Positions 1-6,159 of a stretch of 15,944 nucleotides of DNA are shown piece by piece. The notes under the pieces are model-generated. The model was not told where the DNA came from. It saw nothing but the letters and a program-made list of their open reading frames with translations, and made no database searches. The position numbers were made by a program, and so were the translations under genes. Origin of the DNA: a virus (Duplodnaviria > Heunggongvirae > Uroviricota > Caudoviricetes); IMG/VR virus record IMGVR_UViG_2713897073_000008; one strand, 5' to 3'. Within the stretch, counting starts at the first letter, position 1. Each line of letters opens with the position of its first letter.

Positions 1-267
1 TTACTCTGCAGGTGAAGTCGGCCACTCAATATCAGGTGCGGTTGATGTATCAACACGGTTCAGCAACACCCGATACTTCTTCCAGGCTTCCAGCAACGAG
101 TTTTCTTCCTCCGTTGCGATCTCCAGATCTACAGCATCCTGAAGTGGCGCAATATGCTCACTGAATTCCTGGATGTAGAACTGTGTGGTGACGGTCTTCC
201 AGCCATTCGGCTCCTGCTGTATCGAAGCATACCAGGCTATTTCAATATCGCTATGCTGCGGCAGCAT
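1..267 (-). CDS. tfa: Tail fiber assembly protein (Tfa), short 88 aa form retaining the conserved C-terminal domain
   Basis: C-terminal ~45 aa ([48 protein letters not shown]) match the conserved C-terminus of lambda-type Tfa as I recall it. The protein is about half the usual Tfa length, so the N-terminal part is replaced or truncated. TAA stop at 1-3. Confidence 0.65.
20..71. repeat. 52-bp conserved core of the tfa 3' end, direct-repeat copy 1 (2 mismatches to 1069..1120)
   Basis: ggccactcaatatcaggtgcGgttgatgtaTcaacacggttcagcaacaccc here versus the same string with A and C at the two capitalised positions at 1069-1120. Flanking sequence is related but more diverged. Confidence 0.8.
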
Positions 268-323
268 TTAACCCCTTGTAATTCATCGCCACAATTGATT
301 TAATTCACAAATAAAACTATAAC

Positions 324-992
324 ATGGTGAAATTAATGAAAAAAAACACAGATGATGGGGCTAAAATTTACACACCACTTACCCTAAAGCTTTATGACTG
401 GTGGGTTTTGGGAGTATCAAATCGGCTTGCATGGGGATGTCCTACAAAGGAACACCTTCTTCCACACTTTCTGGAACATTTAGGTAACAACCATCTGGAT
501 ATTGGTGTTGGAACTGGGTTTTACCTTACTCACGTACCTGAGAGTAGTCTGATATCTTTAATGGATTTGAACGAAGCTAGCCTGAACGCGGCATCGACAA
601 GGGCTGGGGAATCAAAAATTAAACATAAAATTAGCCATGATGTTTTTGAACCTTATCCCGCGGCATTACATGGTCAATTTGATTCCATTTCCATGTTTTA
701 CCTTCTTCACTGCCTGCCTGGAAATATATCTACAAAAAGCTGTGTAATACGCAATGCGGCGCAGGCCTTAACTGACGATGGAACTCTATACGGAGCCACA
801 ATTCTTGGTGACGGCGTTGTGCACAATAGCTTCGGTCAAAAACTGATGCGCATTTACAATCAAAAAGGCATCTTTTCAAACACAAAAGATTCCGAAGAAG
901 GCTTAACACATATACTCTCAGAGCATTTCGAGAATGTTAAAACCAAGATTAAAGGTACTGTAGTAATGTTTTCCGCTTCAGGGAAAAAATAG
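324..992 (+). CDS. Class I SAM-dependent methyltransferase (222 aa); alternative start at 336 has the better SD
   Basis: Glycine-rich motif I (HLDIGVGTGFYL) typical of Rossmann-fold SAM methyltransferases. Visibly AT-rich gene on the opposite strand to the flanking tfa sequences. TGGTGA 5 nt upstream of ATG 336. Confidence 0.6.
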   Translation: MVKLMKKNTDDGAKIYTPLTLKLYDWWVLGVSNRLAWGCPTKEHLLPHFLEHLGNNHLDIGVGTGFYLTHVPESSLISLMDLNEASLNAASTRAGESKIKHKISHDVFEPYPAALHGQFDSISMFYLLHCLPGNISTKSCVIRNAAQALTDDGTLYGATILGDGVVHNSFGQKLMRIYNQKGIFSNTKDSEEGLTHILSEHFENVKTKIKGTVVMFSASGKK

Positions 993-1046
993 CATCCAGC
1001 CGCAGCACGTTCTTGCGCACGACGTGCTGCGGCATAATCTCAATGA

Positions 1047-1163
1047 TTACTCCCTGACAGGGTTCGTAGGCCACTCAATATCAGGTGCAGTTGATGTACC
1101 AACACGGTTCAGCAACACCCTGCATGCCTTCCATGCCGCCAGCAATGATGTTTCCTCCTTCGT
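1047..1163 (-). pseudogene. tfa 3' fragment (about 38 codons of Tfa C-terminus, no start codon, in-frame stop immediately upstream)
   Basis: Minus-strand translation gives [39 protein letters not shown], homologous to the C-terminus of the 1..267 Tfa; homology ends abruptly at about 1163, preceded by TGA in frame. Confidence 0.6.
1069..1120. repeat. 52-bp conserved core of the tfa 3' end, direct-repeat copy 2
   Basis: See copy 1 at 20..71; same orientation, 50/52 identical by eye. Confidence 0.8.
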
Positions 1164-1439
1164 TGCATATACTGCTCACCTTTTTCACCCACGATTAACC
1201 AACAGCCAGATTCGCAGGCACGCCCCACCACGGCATATTCATACGCTTGCCATGTCCGAACATTTCAATCCAGCGATATTATGCCTGGGGTGTTCAAGCG
1301 CAATGAAGTACGTATTGTATCTTCGCGATTTTTTATAGGCTAATTGACGCGCAATTCTGAGCGGGGAGCGCACAATCAAACAGCACAGAATGGATCGCTG
1401 ATATTTATCCTTTTGTCGGTTTATCAAACAACAAGAGAG

Positions 1440-2654
1440 TCAATAGCGGATTGTCCCTACATCCATTTCTGGCGAATCCACTAACCAGAAATTATCTGGC
1501 TTTACAGCCAGAATGATCCAGGCAGTGTTTGTTGTTGATGACCAGGAAGGCAGCACATCGTATGCCGGGTCATCGCAAGAATCACGATAACCGTACTCAT
1601 TAAAAAGTGGAGCCATTGCTGCCACAAGATTCACCGCATTCAGCTCATTACCCAGCTTGCGCTCAAAAAGTGCCACACCTGCCGTTCCTTCCACCCACAC
1701 GCCACGGCTGTGACCACTATAACCATAATCAGGGTGGTACGGTGTGTAACCCGTGGTTTCCCTCGTACCAAATAAAAAACGCCCCATATATTTTCGGCAC
1801 TTAGCCGCTTTCTCAGCATCAATATTGGCAACAAACAATCCGCCCCAGGAAGACTGATCCAGCGCCGCTGCGTTGTCATAGTGGGTTGAATGAACCCCCT
1901 GTCGAAATCGGCCTTCATCTTCCACCCACAGACCTCTGATGATGCTCTTTGCCAGCCTGTCAGCCCGCTCACTGAAACCGTCAAATCCCAGCCGTCCCAT
2001 CAGTTCAAACAAAAACCAGATATCAACGTTATGCTCCAGTGCGCACCATTCGGCGACAAAAGTTTCATCAAAATTGCCGTCCACATAACGCCCCTGCCCC
2101 CCTTTATACAGGCCTTCACGCAGGTCGCCTGGTGTGCTCACCAGAAAAGTATCCAGCCAGGCAATGCCTGCCAATAGCTTTTCTCTGACCCGCGCAGTCT
2201 GAGTACCGTCCGGATACTTCTCCAGATAGAAAGCAAGAGCATAATAAACCCATGCCGCATTGCCCAAGCGGTAATAGGTACGCGGTGACATGGCAGACAG
2301 CCTGTTAACAAAAAACTTTACTCCACCGTTTTCATCAACAAGCGCACACAAGCCCGCAACGTATCTTTCTACAGCCTCATGTCGCTGAACCATCAACGCC
2401 AGTGCTGCCAGCGCCTGGTCATACGTGTAACACCGATCTTTCATCACCCTGATCACTTCGGGGTCTGCGTCCTCCGGCATCCAGTAGCTACGAATGAGCA
2501 GTGGAAACTCCAGCGTTGTGATCCACGCATTATCCTCAATCCGAATAAGACGAAACTGTTTTGCTCCCGTCCAGCAACGTCTGAAATAGAAAGTTCCGTC
2601 ACTATTCAAATTAGCGTCGCCGTTAAAATACTCTCCGGTTGTATAAGCATACAT
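1440..2654 (-). CDS. Hypothetical protein (404 aa), function unknown; may be a frameshifted continuation of the upstream portal-like ORF
   Basis: Long uninterrupted ORF with ordinary-looking codon usage and several antisense shadow ORFs. Its 5' end overlaps the 3' end of the portal-like ORF by about 49 bp in another frame. No motif I can name with confidence. Confidence 0.45.
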   Translation of the reverse strand: MYAYTTGEYFNGDANLNSDGTFYFRRCWTGAKQFRLIRIEDNAWITTLEFPLLIRSYWMPEDADPEVIRVMKDRCYTYDQALAALALMVQRHEAVERYVAGLCALVDENGGVKFFVNRLSAMSPRTYYRLGNAAWVYYALAFYLEKYPDGTQTARVREKLLAGIAWLDTFLVSTPGDLREGLYKGGQGRYVDGNFDETFVAEWCALEHNVDIWFLFELMGRLGFDGFSERADRLAKSIIRGLWVEDEGRFRQGVHSTHYDNAAALDQSSWGGLFVANIDAEKAAKCRKYMGRFLFGTRETTGYTPYHPDYGYSGHSRGVWVEGTAGVALFERKLGNELNAVNLVAAMAPLFNEYGYRDSCDDPAYDVLPSWSSTTNTAWIILAVKPDNFWLVDSPEMDVGTIRY

Positions 2655-3235
2655 ATCGACTTTATACTTTTCAGGTTCAGCCTGTTGCTCTCATCACTGG
2701 TCATGGGAATAAAGTCCGGCTCGAGCGCCTCCAGCCAGAAATGAACACCGGCAGAAGGCGTCAGGCTGTTTATGCGCCCGGAAACCATCTGGGCAAACAC
2801 CTCACCATCGCGCAGCCAGGTACGCAGCATCAGACGTTCCAGCATCGGACGGGTAAACTGCCCGGTGACCTCCGGACTGACAGACCATTCACTCCATCGG
2901 GTGCGTATCTCCGCTGCCAGATCACGGGCAATGGCCCCATTGCGTAATACCGGATGTGGCTCGACAATAATCCCGTTTTTCCCCACCACCCGTTCTTCCA
3001 GCTTGTCAAATACACCAATGACCAGATCGTGGTTGTTATCAAGGTAACGGGCCTGCTCACGTAACGACACGGCCCCGTACTGGCTTAACTGATCGGCAGT
3101 TCGGTTCTCCCGTCGGGCTTTGTGTGTCCGCGTCGTTTTTACGGCCTCATAAGCCTGGATCACCGCACGGGAACGCAGCCTTGCCGCTTTCCATCCTGGT
3201 GAAAAAACGCCAATCACATCATCAAGAATTGCCAT
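2606..3235 (-). CDS. Phage portal protein-like, N-terminal region only (209 aa); apparently truncated or frameshifted
   Basis: Arg-rich N-terminus followed by SLREQARYLDNNHDLVIGVFDKLEERVVGKNGI, resembling the conserved N-terminal motif of lambda-family portal proteins as I recall it. The ORF is far too short for a portal (~500+ aa). Start overlaps the end of the upstream ORF, as is typical of phage head genes. Confidence 0.4.
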   Translation of the reverse strand: MAILDDVIGVFSPGWKAARLRSRAVIQAYEAVKTTRTHKARRENRTADQLSQYGAVSLREQARYLDNNHDLVIGVFDKLEERVVGKNGIIVEPHPVLRNGAIARDLAAEIRTRWSEWSVSPEVTGQFTRPMLERLMLRTWLRDGEVFAQMVSGRINSLTPSAGVHFWLEALEPDFIPMTSDESNRLNLKSIKSICMLIQPESILTATLI

Positions 3236-3557
3236 CAGAACCTCGCCAGCCGGTAATCGAGTTATCAGAACTGTTAATTTTTATGGTATACCGCGCCTCT
3301 GAACAGGGGCGCGTTTCTGGCAACAGCTCGTCCCCTTCACATAACCCGGCAGCAACATCCAGGAAGACCTGTCTGATGCTCCTTCTGGCTGCTGCCTCAT
3401 AAAACTCCAGCGCTGCACCTTCAACACGGTCCAGCGAGATGTCCAGGTCAAAAATTTCACCGTCAAAGCGTTTTTTGTCCCGTAACGCTAAAGTTACCGT
3501 AACTTTATTCTCAAAATTGCGGATCCCTTTCACAATCAGTTCATAGTTTTGAGTCAT
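3222..3557 (-). CDS. Hypothetical phage protein (111 aa), immediately downstream of holin and overlapping the portal-like ORF start
   Basis: ATG at 3557 sits 4 nt after the holin stop with GGAGAG about 10 nt upstream. It occupies the position where endolysin or terminase/head-completion genes would be expected but has no lysozyme-like motif. Confidence 0.5.
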   Translation of the reverse strand: MTQNYELIVKGIRNFENKVTVTLALRDKKRFDGEIFDLDISLDRVEGAALEFYEAAARRSIRQVFLDVAAGLCEGDELLPETRPCSEARYTIKINSSDNSITGWRGSDGNS

Positions 3558-3561
3558 TGAA

Positions 3562-3777
3562 TTACTCTCCCCGTGCAGCCTTACGCTTGTCTTCTCTGAT
3601 TTTGAAGTACAGATTTGTCAGATAAGTCAGGAAGCCCAGAACCAGACTCCCCAGTACACCAATCGCAGCCCACTGTGACGGACTGACCTGATCAAGCCAC
3701 TGTAAAAACCAGTAGCCAGCACTGCCTGCGGAGGTGCCATAGGCAATGCCCGTTGAAATTTTGTCCATGGATTTCAT
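3562..3777 (-). CDS. Pinholin, phage 21 S21 family (71 aa; dual-start motif M1-K-S-M4)
   Basis: [71 protein letters not shown]: two hydrophobic segments (first Gly/Ala/Ser-rich, SAR-like), charged C-terminus, Met1/Met4 dual start as in S21-71/S21-68. Closely matches my recollection of the S21 pinholin. Confidence 0.8.
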
Positions 3778-3835
3778 AGCCTCACCTCCGCAAATAACGG
3801 ATGGCGTAGTTTTACACTGAGAAATGAAAGGGATT

Positions 3836-3862
3836 TGAAAAGAAAAGCCCGCAAAAGCGGGC
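3836..3862 (-). terminator. Putative intrinsic terminator (minus-strand sense): GCCCGC-AAAA-GCGGGC hairpin followed by U-rich tract
   Basis: Plus strand gaaaagaaaaGCCCGCaaaaGCGGGC; on the minus strand the 6-bp GC stem is followed by UUUUCUUUUC. Lies between the tRNA cluster and the holin. Confidence 0.35.
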
Positions 3863-3937
3863 GAAACAATATATACAGTAAGGAAAGCACTCTATCCAAC
3901 AAACCACCCACAGTTAATCGGAATAAAAGCAGAGTGC

Positions 3938-4010
3938 TTATGAATGATCGCCTGCCCGAAGGTTAGTATTTCTGCACAGCAATTTTGCAAAAAAAGGCGA
4001 TCATTCATAA
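3938..4010. repeat. Perfect 15-bp inverted repeat (TTATGAATGATCGCC / GGCGATCATTCATAA) separated by 43 bp
   Basis: Arms at 3938-3952 and 3996-4010 are exact reverse complements. Non-coding region between the tRNAs and the holin. Confidence 0.7.
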
Positions 4011-4069
4011 CTTAAACGTCCTTCAGTCACTCCGGGATTTCCCATCATCGCAGACTGAAAGACTCTGAC

Positions 4070-4144
<75 letters not shown>

Positions 4145-4147
4145 ATA

Positions 4148-4223
<76 letters not shown>

Positions 4224-4225
4224 AC

Positions 4226-4302
4226 TGGACCGCCACCGGGGACTCGAACCTCGCACACTCAACTTAAAGAGTTGACGCTCTTTCCTGATGAGCTAGTGGC
4301 GG
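4226..4302 (-). tRNA. Atypical tRNA-like gene; canonical fold gives anticodon UUU (Lys) with non-canonical C33 (a register shift would give UCU, Arg)
   Basis: Reverse complement CCGCCAC-UA-GCUC-AUCAGGAAA-GAGC-G-UCAAC-UCUUUAA-GUUGA-GUGUG-CGAGG-UUCGAGU-CCCCG-GUGGCGG-U-CCA: 7-bp acceptor stem (C1-G72), 4-bp D-stem with GG in D-loop, 5-bp anticodon stem, T-stem with one A/C mismatch, CCA encoded. Only 2 nt and 1 nt from the neighbouring tRNAs. Confidence 0.55.
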
Positions 4303-4303
4303 T

Positions 4304-4379
4304 TGGTGGCCCTTGCTGGATTTGAACCAGCGACCTGGCGATTATGAGTCGCTCGCTCTCACCACTGAGCTAAAGGGCC
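4304..4379 (-). tRNA. tRNA with anticodon CAU, most like tRNA-Ile2 (lysidine-modified, AUA-decoding; ileX/ileZ type) rather than elongator Met
   Basis: Reverse complement GGCCCUUUAGCUCAGUGGUGAGAGCGAGCGACUCAUAAUCGCCAGGUCGCUGGUUCAAAUCCAGCAAGGGCCACCA; very similar to E. coli ileX as I recall it. Anticodon loop CUCAUAA. Confidence 0.8.
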
Positions 4380-4388
4380 GGGCGCAGG

Positions 4389-4417
4389 ATAATAACGTTA
4401 CGAAATCAATGTTGCAA
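4389..4417 (-). promoter_or_regulatory. Putative sigma70 promoter for the tRNA cluster (-35 TTGCAA, 17-bp spacer, -10 TATTAT), ending about 9 nt upstream of tRNA-Ile 5' end
   Basis: Minus-strand reading TTGCAA(4417-4412) cattgatttcgtaacgt TATTAT(4394-4389) cctgcgccc then the tRNA 5' G. Upstream A/T-rich direct repeats AAAAATCACC x2 at about 4422-4450 could be UP-element-like. Confidence 0.3.
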
Positions 4418-4499
4418 GCATTCAAAAATCACCTGGTTAAAAATCACCCTTATCTCCTCCACCAGCGCATTCACCATGTCTATCCGAGATAAGTGACAC

Positions 4500-4524
4500 A
4501 AAAAAACCCGCTTGATGCGGGTTT
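4500..4524 (-). terminator. Intrinsic terminator on the minus strand (CCCGC-AUCAA-GCGGG + U7); tR'-like, upstream of the tRNA cluster
   Basis: Plus strand aaaaaaaCCCGCttgatGCGGGttt; on the minus strand the hairpin is followed by a 7-U tract. Confidence 0.45.
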
Positions 4525-4644
4525 AAGTTGTGTGGCGAAGCGACCACTCTTAACAGATTAAGATAGTTTTTGCGTACGCGTTAGTGATTTTTTCATAATT
4601 ATCTGTATCCTGTGGCTATTTCTCTTGCGCAAAGGATGCTTTTG

Positions 4645-5523
4645 ATGACGCAGCAACTCGAAAACATGCCAATAACAGAAATCGAAATTGCCTACGGTGG
4701 AGAGGCATACGCAGATAATCAGATCGACGCGAAAACATTAGGCGAAGCCTTAACCTCTCTTAGTGCCCTGATTGAACACGCCGAAAAAATAATTAATGGC
4801 GAAACAGCAGAGCCGAAAGTCAACATCAAGGCAACAAAAGAAGGTTCATTTACTTTGCTTGTTGCTGTGATGGGGAGCATAAAAACTATTAACGCCCTTG
4901 GCCTCGTTGCAGGTGGTGGAGTTGCCGCAGGTGGCGTACTCGGGATAATCGAATGGCTCAAAGGGCGTAAAATCAGCTCCATTGTCGTCGATGAACAAAA
5001 AGATACAGCAGAAATCGAAGTGGATGGTGAGAAGGTTAAATGCAGTAACGACATTCAAAAATTAATAACCAGTCCAATCATCCGAAAAGAACTGGATAAA
5101 TTAATCTATAAACCCCTGCAGACTGAAAAACCATCCACGTTCTCAGTTTCACAGCAGAAGCATAAGGTAGTCAGGGTGACGCAAGCTGAAGCAGTAAGTT
5201 TTAAAACTGCAAAATCCACCTTTGTCGAGAAAACGCACGTAACGACACGCCAAGCTAATGTACATTTTGCTAATGTTCGATTCAAGCAAGGCAAAAGCTG
5301 GGATATCATCCTGCCAAATGGCGAAGAAGTTAGCGCATCTATGAAAGATGAGGCTTTTCTTGAACGGGTTGAACACAACCAAGCAGCATTCTGTAAGGGT
5401 GATCTTTTTGTTGTAGAACTGACAGAAACAACAAAAGAAACAAATGGCGCGCTGTCTAAACCACGCTATAGTATTACTAAGGTTATACGCCACAGAGCGG
5501 CGGCAGATAGGAAACTACTTTAA
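4645..5523 (+). CDS. Hypothetical protein (292 aa from ATG 4645; ORF open from GTG 4612) with central glycine-zipper hydrophobic segment; first gene of AT-rich three-gene operon
   Basis: AAGGA SD 9 nt upstream of ATG 4645. Central FTLLVAVMGSIKTINALGLVAGGGVAAGGVLGIIEWL (GxxxG-rich) flanked by charged, K/T/E-rich soluble regions. Antisense frames carry only short shadow ORFs. No recognisable catalytic motif. Confidence 0.6.
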   Translation: MTQQLENMPITEIEIAYGGEAYADNQIDAKTLGEALTSLSALIEHAEKIINGETAEPKVNIKATKEGSFTLLVAVMGSIKTINALGLVAGGGVAAGGVLGIIEWLKGRKISSIVVDEQKDTAEIEVDGEKVKCSNDIQKLITSPIIRKELDKLIYKPLQTEKPSTFSVSQQKHKVVRVTQAEAVSFKTAKSTFVEKTHVTTRQANVHFANVRFKQGKSWDIILPNGEEVSASMKDEAFLERVEHNQAAFCKGDLFVVELTETTKETNGALSKPRYSITKVIRHRAAADRKLL

Positions 5524-5526
5524 ATC

Positions 5527-5772
5527 ATGTCAATCCTAAGCATTATGCTTTACATCACTGTATTCATGGCTGTCGCAGCGACGGTCAGATATGCTGTGCT
5601 TAGGTTCTTGGTTTGGGTAAAGCCGAATGCGTATATTGAACTAACCTACACCGATCCTGAAGGCAGAACCGCTAAAAGGAAAGTCAGCGTTAGAAACGAA
5701 AATGACGCAGAAGAGTTGGCGCTACTGCTACGCGAACTCAAAACTCGCAACGAAGCAAGTGCAGGAAGGTGA
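5527..5772 (+). CDS. Small membrane protein (81 aa; one N-terminal TM helix, charged C-terminal tail)
   Basis: Starts 4 nt after the upstream stop. ILSIMLYITVFMAVAATVRYAVLRFLVWV hydrophobic helix, then K/R/E-rich tail. Confidence 0.55.
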   Translation: MSILSIMLYITVFMAVAATVRYAVLRFLVWVKPNAYIELTYTDPEGRTAKRKVSVRNENDAEELALLLRELKTRNEASAGR

Positions 5773-6159
5773 ATGGCGAACACTAAATCCTACCTGGCAA
5801 TGCAGGCATGGTTTACCACCCTTATCACTGCGGGATTGAATTTCCTTTTTGACTGGCTTCCTCAATTAGCCTTCTTCAAATCATTGGCGCCTGGAGCTGC
5901 TGTCGGCTTATCTCATGTGGTAATTCTTCTTATCGCTTACATAGGTTTGCCTACGCTTAATGATGTAAGAATGAAAAGGGAAATAAAAACGGCCAGAAAA
6001 TTCATCACGAACTGCCTGGCCAACCCTAACCTAACACCAGACCAAATTGCGCACTACAACCAATGTCTTATCGATCTAGACAATAAGCTATTAAAAAACA
6101 TAAATATTCGTATTGATGCTTTATCTGACGCCGAATCGAAAGCTCAAGCAAACGAGTAG
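5773..6159 (+). CDS. Small membrane protein (128 aa; two predicted TM helices, soluble C-terminal domain)
   Basis: ATG directly abuts the upstream TGA (tgaATG), indicating translational coupling. Hydrophobic helices at about residues 10-32 and 40-62. The stop lies only 13 bp from the convergent Q gene stop. Confidence 0.55.
   Translation: MANTKSYLAMQAWFTTLITAGLNFLFDWLPQLAFFKSLAPGAAVGLSHVVILLIAYIGLPTLNDVRMKREIKTARKFITNCLANPNLTPDQIAHYNQCLIDLDNKLLKNINIRIDALSDAESKAQANE

Follow-up and report, generated by a model that had tools for sequence, protein, structure and literature searches.

A predicted structured RNA trailer behind a prophage tRNA array: the inverted repeat ahead of the holin gene in a lambdoid remnant of Escherichia coli as the probable closing helix of its central domain

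The late leaders of lambdoid phages hold regulatory RNAs that rewire the host, among them StxS, AsxR and AgvB, STnc100 and the Pas sRNAs. The E. coli operon glyW-cysT-leuZ gives rise to 3'ETS-leuZ, an RNA of about 50 nt that consists mostly of the terminator, and the tRNA cluster of phage T4 yields the stable "species 1" and "species 2" RNAs (rnaC and rnaD), which are structured non-tRNA molecules co-transcribed with the cluster and processed from it. To our knowledge, the function of the two T4 RNAs is still unexplained. 3'ETS-leuZ is listed in the RIL-seq tables of EPEC (PMC8550237), and STnc100 (RF02076) and the related PasD have been described as sRNAs of lambdoid prophages (preprint 10.64898/2026.05.13.724894; PMC8550237). 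The anti-sRNAs AsxR and AgvB are found at the moron site downstream of PR'; each measures 51-60 nt and is transcribed from a start site of its own, and AsxR runs antisense to the stx2 transcript (PMC4104026).

The DNA analyzed here (the window, 15,944 nt in its whole length) is a decayed lambdoid prophage remnant of E. coli. Strain 99-3165, in which the prophage adjoins potB, matches the 291 bp around the inverted repeat studied at 100% identity. A sequence-only reading of the window had described a perfect 15-bp inverted repeat with a 43-bp spacer at 3938-4010, between a tRNA cluster and the holin gene. The repeat and its position were correctly described (tRNAs at 4070-4379, holin at 3562-3777), and only its size was slightly understated. 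The sequence TTATGAATGATCGCC occupies 3938-3952 and its exact reverse complement 3996-4010, and the match runs one base further inward, which gives perfect arms of 16 nt (3938-3953 and 3995-4010) separated by 41 nt. This is the longest perfect inverted repeat of the window. In 300 dinucleotide-preserving shuffles, with spacers of 3-60 nt allowed, 16 nt were never reached and the maximum of 15 nt was seen once; the 15-mer TTATGAATGATCGCC is unique within the window. The repeat is confirmed as real and not a product of chance. The tRNAs, the repeat and the holin gene all lie on the minus strand, a point that the sequence-only reading did not mention, so that the RNA in question reads as the window's reverse complement. 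Its remark that Stx phages carry stx at this place was apt, as the site is the moron-insertion zone of the late leader.

Read along the minus strand, the locus begins with the gene of the Q antiterminator (6529-6173, Pfam PF06530), followed by two inserted ORFs on the plus strand and by an intrinsic terminator, AAACCCGC...GCGGGTTT with a T-run, which a terminator scan placed at 4504-4524 on the minus strand. This is likely a tR'-type terminator preceding the promoter of the tRNAs. A consensus scan predicted the latter at 4389-4417 of the same strand, as a sigma-70-type promoter (TTGCAA-17 nt-TATTAT) with the GC-rich discriminator CCTGCGCCC, ending about 9 nt before the first tRNA. The array itself (4070-4379, minus strand) comprises four genes recognized by ARAGORN, by Rfam tRNA matches of 44-74 bits and by PGAP, in the order CAT anticodon, Lys(UUU), Thr(UGU) and Gly(UCC). 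The CAT-anticodon tRNA was called Met by ARAGORN and Ile by PGAP, the latter in the identical region of strain 99-3165. Between the array and the holin gene, on the minus strand, lie three hairpins: HP1 (4018-4063; from the fold and as inverted repeat I3), HP2 (3938-4010; the repeat under study, from the repeat search and the fold) and HP3 (3885-3937; from the fold and as inverted repeat I5). They are followed by a second intrinsic terminator on this strand (3837-3862, stem 3862-3847; terminator scan and fold), GCCCGC-UUUU-GCGGGC and then UUUUCUUUU, which is the predicted end of the transcript of tRNAs and trailer and is located about 60 nt upstream of the holin start. The first downstream gene encodes a class II (phage 21 S) holin (3562-3777, minus strand; Pfam PF04971, E = 1.4e-35). 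Ten ORFs of the window were scanned against Pfam, and no integrase was found among them.

The non-coding region between the array and the terminator thus has the position of a 3' external transcribed spacer of a tRNA operon: tRNA-Gly ends at 4070, the region with HP1, HP2 and HP3 spans 4069-3863, the terminator comes after it, and all are on one strand. We refer to this region, of about 220-230 nt, as the trailer. Folding, which had been suggested as a check of the repeat, turned the minus strand from 4069 to 3838 into three consecutive long hairpins and the terminator, with an energy of -84.5 kcal/mol (z = -5.9) that none of 200 shuffles matched. HP1 consists of an 11-bp stem, GUCUUUCAGUC/GACUGAAGGAC, which encloses a small GGG-AAAU-CCC hairpin. 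HP2 is a three-way junction of 73 nt (-29 kcal/mol, z = -4.3). Its outer stem of 16 bp, formed by 4010-3995 and 3953-3938, is the inverted repeat itself, and inside it are the 8-bp hairpin P2a (3993-3986 with 3976-3969, loop AAAUUGCUG at 3985-3977) and the mini-hairpin P2b (CC-UUCG-GG, 3962-3955). With one unpaired U between them, the outer stem and P2a could stack into a near-continuous helix of about 24 bp. HP3 has the basal stem GCACUCU/AGAGUGC and an apical wobble-rich hairpin, CCGAUUAACU-GUGGGU-GGUUUGUUGG; in other phage contigs the same apical hairpin turned up on different basal stems and with no HP2. The terminator hairpin, with its U-tail and the U-rich stretch that precedes it, resembles an Hfq module by eye only.

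Several known identities for HP2 were considered and rejected. It is no intrinsic terminator, as its stem is A+U-rich, its loop measures 41 nt and GCACUCUGC, not a U-run, comes after the 3' arm; the terminator scan reported only 3862-3847 and 4524-4504. It is no tRNA-like cloverleaf either, given that ARAGORN and the Rfam tRNA model find only the four tRNAs and that HP2 is a three-way junction with a 16-bp closing helix. The arm starts GTTATGA and GTTTTGA do not, by eye, fit the GTTRRRY of an integron attC site, and no integrase was annotated in the late-leader neighbourhoods inspected. A pairing of P2b (CGGGC) with the 5' strand of the terminator, of the antiterminator kind, is possible in the window by eye and is not conserved in the diverged copies related to phage HK639. 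No conserved alternative pairing with the downstream terminator was found, which leaves the attenuation site proposed by the sequence-only reading without support.

Searches against described RNA families gave no identity for the element. In a permissive Rfam 15 cmscan of positions 3300-4800 of the window (E <= 10), HP2 and HP3 had no match of any kind, HP1 matched only mir-1827 (15 bits against a gathering score of 82), and three weak matches overlapped the terminator (17-20 bits, with gathering scores of 35-55). Nothing on the element matched the Rfam models of AgvB and AsxR (RF02702 and RF02703), STnc100, Esr41 or isrK, nor those of tRNA-like elements, hammerheads and other ribozymes. At gathering thresholds, six related loci showed tRNA, STnc100, isrJ and ALIL, and nothing on the element. 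Four regions of E2348/69 (NC_011601) that hold the pas loci, with coordinates taken from PMC8550237, were compared by blastn (word size 7) with the window and HK639 elements and gave chance-level matches only; our covariance model of the element (R1) had no match in them. In that genome, PasB is located between tail genes, PasA is antisense to the late operon and PasD1 lies upstream of a holin gene. Literature searches for the loop sequences that are conserved, in DNA and RNA letters and for either strand, returned no match, and neither did searches for sRNAs from the 3'ETS of prophage tRNAs or for HK639. The structured RNA predicted here is apparently undescribed, and it is absent from Rfam and unannotated in RefSeq.

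On sequence and position, the predicted trailer belongs among the RNAs of prophage late leaders and tRNA spacers, and it combines traits of the systems described above. Like 3'ETS-leuZ, it lies directly after the last tRNA, ends at the intrinsic terminator of the unit and would be freed by the cleavages that mature the tRNAs. However, it is about 220 nt long, has three long covarying hairpins, is carried by a prophage and shows no sequence similarity to 3'ETS-leuZ. Like STnc100 and PasD, it is a structured cassette on the sense strand between Q and the holin gene with its own predicted terminator. STnc100 cassettes are present in the late leaders of HK639, Fels-1 and PhiR49_2 in the same orientation, and in HK639 and Fels-1 they stand beside the element. 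Yet the trailer has no match to the STnc100 model at E <= 10 and is joined to a tRNA array, which STnc100 is not. The element shares the sRNA-dense zone of lambdoid phages with AsxR and AgvB, from which it differs in being sense, much longer and joined to tRNAs. The likeness to the T4 species 1 and 2 RNAs is drawn by description only, and these come from a virulent myophage, unlike the trailer.

The element is widespread. Near-identical copies (95-100% identity) were found in 529 of 5426 complete E. coli genomes (about 10%), always on the chromosome, and nothing except tRNA was annotated under them. With the HK639-type copies included the total is 535 of 5426, the HK639 type being present in only about 10 genomes and the window type dominant. 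About 100 IMG/VR contigs and four deposited E. coli phages also carry it, and an IMG/VR scan with a 16-nt loop motif, from which the window type was excluded, added about 50 further distinct HK639-type copies. A scan with GGGTGGTTTGTTGGB gave mostly chance matches and gained little, and a longer HP3 anchor was used instead. In GTDB, with one genome per species, real copies were restricted to Enterobacteriaceae (Enterobacter hormaechei, Citrobacter sedlakii, Yokenella regensburgei, Phytobacter ursingii, Shigella flexneri and E. coli), whose genomes scored 155-164 bits with covariance model R1. Salmonella prophage Fels-1 carries a copy of HP2. The late region of the K-12 prophage DLP12, where the IpeX sRNA lies upstream of essD, gave no match to the covariance model of the element. 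Comparison of related prophages, including HK639 and Fels-1, thus showed the repeat with a conserved structure in many lambdoid prophages. The copy of HK639 itself, at 75-79% identity, is located between the Q gene and the holin genes and keeps all three hairpins through compensatory changes; in its HP2, positions 3, 11, 15 and 16 differ from the window on both sides, one pair has become G·U and another A·C. Close copies differ in the length of the T-run next to the 5' arm (T6 to T9) and in one or two pairs at the top of the stem. Some copies do without HP1 and some without HP3; HP1 is missing where HP2 abuts the CCA end of a tRNA.

This distribution bears on the proposal that the repeat is the scar of an excised element. 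A transposable-element scar or miniature remnant (MITE or IS) would account for 73 bp bounded by 16-bp inverted repeats, and a small protein-coding gene might be seen in an ORF of 38 codons that starts in the arm and is annotated as "hypothetical protein" in phage vB_EcoM-606R7. Yet there is one copy per prophage, every homologous copy stands in the constant context of a late leader, the interior is usually conserved, and the flanks (AAG and GCA) form no direct repeat such as a target-site duplication. A search with the 15-mer in other genomes, which the sequence-only reading had recommended, did recover the homologous copies in late leaders; the 21 non-homologous matches elsewhere were unrelated, solitary single arms at chance level. 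As for the ORF, indels in the T-run shift its frame in many near-identical copies, so the region is non-coding. Both the scar and the gene are scarcely credible on this evidence.

Conserved pairing was analyzed in an alignment (A1) of 67 distinct sequences, on which RNAalifold, used for the consensus structure, recovered HP3 and HP2 with its outer stem, P2a and P2b. Standard pairs were formed in 97.8% of the cells of this alignment, against 32.8-46.7% when the 3' partners were slid by 1-3 columns. Changes on both sides were present in 12 pairs (163 cells), which trace to few independent events, mainly to the separation of the window-type and HK639-type clades; they affect 5 of the 14 outer-stem pairs and 5 of the 6 basal pairs of HP3. 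The observed percentage of paired cells, two counts of double changes and the covariation score were not reached by any of 500 column shuffles. HP1, aligned in 34 rows that include two tRNA rows (L159 and L205), showed covariation at two basal pairs (UA<->CG and CG<->UA) among its 32 distinct copies. The structural part of the earlier suggestion, an RNA stem-loop in the late transcript, is therefore supported, since compensatory changes maintain the stem in diverged copies.

The strand of the RNA was judged from wobble pairs. The alignment holds 323 G·U cells, and pairing reaches 97.8% on the late-sense strand vs 86.2% on the antisense strand, the values being 99.8 vs 83.4% for P2a and 97.2 vs 80.5% for HP3. 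The outer stem alone is about equally paired on the two strands (about 94% sense vs 92.5% antisense, with position 6 counted, which is A·C on the sense strand in 31 of the 67 copies and would be G·U on the antisense), so the strand call rests on P2a and HP3. These two hairpins pair well only in the late-sense direction, in which the element is always co-oriented with the tRNAs and the lysis genes. A further suggestion had been that the palindrome binds a protein, as an operator or other DNA site for a dimeric regulator. The symmetry is indeed perfect in the window and the arm sequence is fairly conserved (TTWTGAATGRKCGC). However, the half-sites are 41 nt apart (57 nt from centre to centre), the arm bases change in complementary pairs (the 5 of 14 outer pairs mentioned), the A·C at position 6 (31/67) and the G·U pairs that are tolerated break the symmetry of the DNA, and the site is inside the predicted transcribed trailer and not at a promoter. 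We consider such a site highly improbable.

Most HK639-type copies were gathered by means of the 16-nt motif of P2a, which runs from the 3' part of the hairpin's 5' strand through the loop into the first bases of the 3' strand, so the invariance of this motif in the alignment is partly by construction. A second scan was anchored on HP3 to counter this ascertainment, and 15 further copies were scored. Fourteen of them keep 14-16 of the 16 outer pairs, and the remaining one (L423) keeps 10, counting in each case the better-pairing strand. Their P2a region differs by one or two substitutions; in two copies (L418 and L428) the interior is replaced and in another (L419) P2a is deleted, with 15-16 of the 16 pairs of the outer stem still formed. 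The P2a loop can thus vary, be replaced or be deleted, which argues against a sequence-specific seed inside HP2. No other feature of the element persists as well as the helix made by the inverted repeat. In general, inverted repeats in DNA can also be "corrected" by template switching, with no selection on an RNA.

The second line of evidence is the association with tRNA arrays. Of 82 distinct loci, 58 have a tRNA array on the same strand that ends no more than 100 nt before HP2. Array and HP2 are 53-61 nt apart in 48 loci, 47 of which have HP1 in between (L233 was left out of this check), starting about 6 nt past the CCA end of the tRNA; in the other 10 loci the gap is 1-8 nt and HP2 abuts the CCA end. 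Where no array is nearby, there is mostly a degenerate tRNA-Gly, a contig end or a moron in its place. A predicted promoter with the pattern TTGCAn-17 nt-TAT(T/C)AT and a GC-rich discriminator precedes the first tRNA in 47 distinct loci, and the DNA further upstream is unrelated among them. Relatives likewise have a terminator some 100-130 nt ahead of the tRNA promoter. Terminator-like hairpins with U-runs follow HP3, or HP2 if HP3 is missing, in the window, in HK639 (where the terminator is annotated) and in the divergent copies inspected, and the element lies on the strand of the lysis genes in every locus inspected. A scan for a promoter of its own just upstream of HP1 or HP2 found none, and by eye the hexamers there were poor and wrongly spaced. 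The element is not a general property of prophage tRNA arrays, because the Met-Arg-Arg array of PhiR49_2 has no such trailer and is directly followed by a terminator and then by STnc100. Taken together, these parts, from the predicted promoter through the array and the trailer to the terminator, give the impression of a self-contained insert in the late leader, placed beyond a tR'-type terminator. Given that terminator, present upstream of the unit in HK639 and probably in the window, expression in the lysogen would depend entirely on the predicted tRNA promoter.

We therefore favor, at a probability of about 0.6, the reading that the repeat of HP2 is the closing helix of a structural domain in the 3' trailer of an autonomous prophage tRNA operon, and that the trailer is probably processed into a stable RNA. 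The trailer would be the 3' external transcribed spacer of this operon, placed in the late leader between Q, PR' and tR' on one side and the lysis genes on the other. In the lysogen, the unit would be transcribed from its own predicted sigma-70 promoter and transcription would stop at 3862-3847, which would insulate the holin gene from the tRNA promoter and keep it silent. During lytic growth, the Q-modified polymerase would pass through this terminator. Maturation of the tRNAs, by RNase P at their 5' ends and by RNase E just past the CCA, would free the trailer, whose long stems and terminator hairpin may confer resistance to nucleases and let it accumulate as a stable small RNA.

The main rival of this reading is a role in cis for the late mRNA. 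5'-terminal stem-loops stabilize E. coli mRNAs, as in the ompA leader, and RNase III sites punctuate the polycistronic RNAs of phages (T7; the N leader and sib of lambda). In the same manner, the stem might shield from RNase E the 5'-monophosphate end left after tRNA excision from the Q-antiterminated transcript, or might be an RNase III site that splits the tRNA precursor from the lysis mRNA. The preference for stem over loop content would agree with this, as 15-16 of 16 pairs are kept in spite of replacement or deletion of the interior. So would the placement of the stem 1-8 nt past the CCA end (10 loci) or of HP1 about 6 nt past it (47 loci), the near-continuous helix of about 24 bp that the outer stem could build on P2a, and the strand shared with the lysis genes. 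Yet a terminator follows the trailer, and other phages have STnc100 and more terminators before the holin gene; with such cassettes between trailer and holin, the lysis mRNA often does not start with the hairpin. End protection alone also gives no reason for the conservation of the arm sequence, or for the P2a loop and the apical motif of HP3, and 16 bp is short for a classical RNase III substrate. A cis role thus appears to us somewhat unlikely.

An origin in DNA rearrangement has also to be weighed against the trailer. The repeat could be a module boundary or recombination junction of the lambdoid mosaic, where morons and tRNA cassettes are exchanged and where the palindrome is kept by template-switch "correction". 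In fact, the upstream DNA differs between copies exactly up to the start of the 5' arm and may be the CCA end of a tRNA, HP1 or the ends of unrelated ORFs. A moron of 551 bp separates a degenerate copy of the 5' arm from the true one in Fels-1 and in one further locus (L172), with L158 as the uninserted form. The equal pairing of the outer stem on both strands would also be expected of such a junction. However, the many G·U pairs restrict good pairing of P2a and HP3 to the late-sense strand, and HP1 and HP3, which are different sequences and not the same palindrome, covary nonetheless. Moreover, no recombinase or other gene travels along with the element, and its orientation to the tRNAs and the lysis genes is fixed. 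As a full explanation we find the junction unlikely, and a junction role and a role of the RNA are not mutually exclusive.

Beyond a processed trailer, we tentatively entertain a broader proposal: the trailer may be a new functional family of non-coding RNA on prophage tRNA arrays that acts in trans (as an sRNA, a sponge or a protein decoy), and the stem may, in addition or instead, serve lambdoid phages as a junction, defined by its structure, for trading morons and tRNA cassettes with one another. A role in trans would go with constitutive expression in the lysogen, for example in a phage-host conflict that would drive the hypervariable second tRNA of the array.

The element would add a widespread RNA to the set known from lambdoid late leaders, one carried by about 10% of the complete E. 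coli genomes and by several other enteric genera. What makes it interesting is that it is coupled to a tRNA array with a predicted promoter of its own. Covariance model R1 offers a direct handle for its annotation. The finding would be conceptually surprising only if a trans-acting or recombination role proved true. If the trailer only serves processing or stabilization, it would explain how a strong constitutive tRNA unit can stand just upstream of a holin gene without death of the lysogen. If it accumulates, it would be a prophage counterpart of the regulators derived from tRNA spacers and of the stable RNAs of the T4 tRNA cluster.

The first tRNA of the four-gene array lies about 9 nt 3' of a sigma-70-type promoter motif, predicted in the window at 4389-4417 on the minus strand (TTGCAn-17-TAT(T/C)AT, followed by a GC-rich discriminator). 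This promoter is kept in 47 distinct loci that otherwise share no related DNA further upstream; judged by that conservation, the array appears to be self-promoted and more than a segment of the PR' transcript. Just upstream of the -35 element, AAAAATCACC (minus strand: GGTGATTTTT) occurs twice as a direct repeat with 15-nt spacing (window 4424-4448); some close relatives have a single copy.

The layout of the array is CAT - X - Thr UGU - Gly UCC, where the second slot, X, is hypervariable and the other slots are conserved. In the window this slot holds a tRNA-Lys (4226-4302), and across loci it contains Lys UUU, Arg UCU, Phe AAA or GAA, a 'Stop' UUA anticodon or one of several tRNAs with an anticodon loop that ARAGORN could not read ('???'). 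The variation was found in L129, L133, L134, L145, L148, L178, L180, L215, L220, L222 and other compared loci. Such variability suggests diversifying selection acting on one tRNA, possibly driven by an anticodon nuclease conflict.

Q and the late leader are separated by two inserted plus-strand ORFs that are convergent with Q. The first (window 4645-5523) matched PDC-S42, a candidate defence family in PADLOC (E 3e-53), and showed no Pfam domain in a Pfam search; the second (5773-6159) had no match in Pfam or PADLOC searches. Beside these ORFs, PGAP annotates a 36-aa 'antiterminator' ORF in E. coli strain 99-3165 (equivalent window position 4437-4547) that is possibly a Q fragment. Downstream, the minus-strand YdfR/DUF1327 gene (window 3222-3557) directly adjoins a minus-strand fragment of a lambda-type portal gene (2606-3235, PF05136), and therefore the lysozyme, spanin and terminase genes are absent from the window. 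These genes are still present in strain 99-3165, which is identical to the window around the repeat. The window prophage is more decayed, and it has retained the holin, the tRNA array and the trailer.

The apical hairpin of HP3, the last trailer hairpin, consists of CCGAyNAACC - NNGGGU - GGUUUGUUGG (10 bp, three G·U). It is present in other phage contigs without tRNAs or HP2, the perfect inverted-repeat hairpin (L323, L337, L406, L411, L412, L414, L416 at 5567-5656, L420-L423 and L425). The basal stems under these stand-alone copies are quite different, for example a 15-bp TTCAGGCATGCAyAC/GTGTGCATGCCTGAA, and in L421 and L423 a terminator lies shortly 5' of the hairpin. These occurrences suggest that the hairpin could be an RNA motif in its own right, with a wider distribution.

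In Fels-1 (L352, 2584-3165) and L172 a 551-bp moron is bordered on one side by the true 5' arm of HP2 and on the other by a degenerate version of that arm (GTTTGCATGAGTGCTG); L158 represents the form without the insertion. The arrangement looks as if 16 nt had been duplicated where the moron inserted. The moron carries STM0906.1n, whose product was read by eye as a putative secreted protein. An Rfam search of window region 3300-4800 found no STnc100 (RF02076) copy. Copies sense to the late leader occur in HK639 (L125, 2206-2411, minus strand), where an annotated terminator is the end of the copy, in PhiR49_2 (L405, 1884-2083, minus strand) and, three times, in Fels-1 (1920-2133, 2334-2456 and 3457-3675, plus strand). 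Late leaders appear to be mosaics built from sRNA cassettes.
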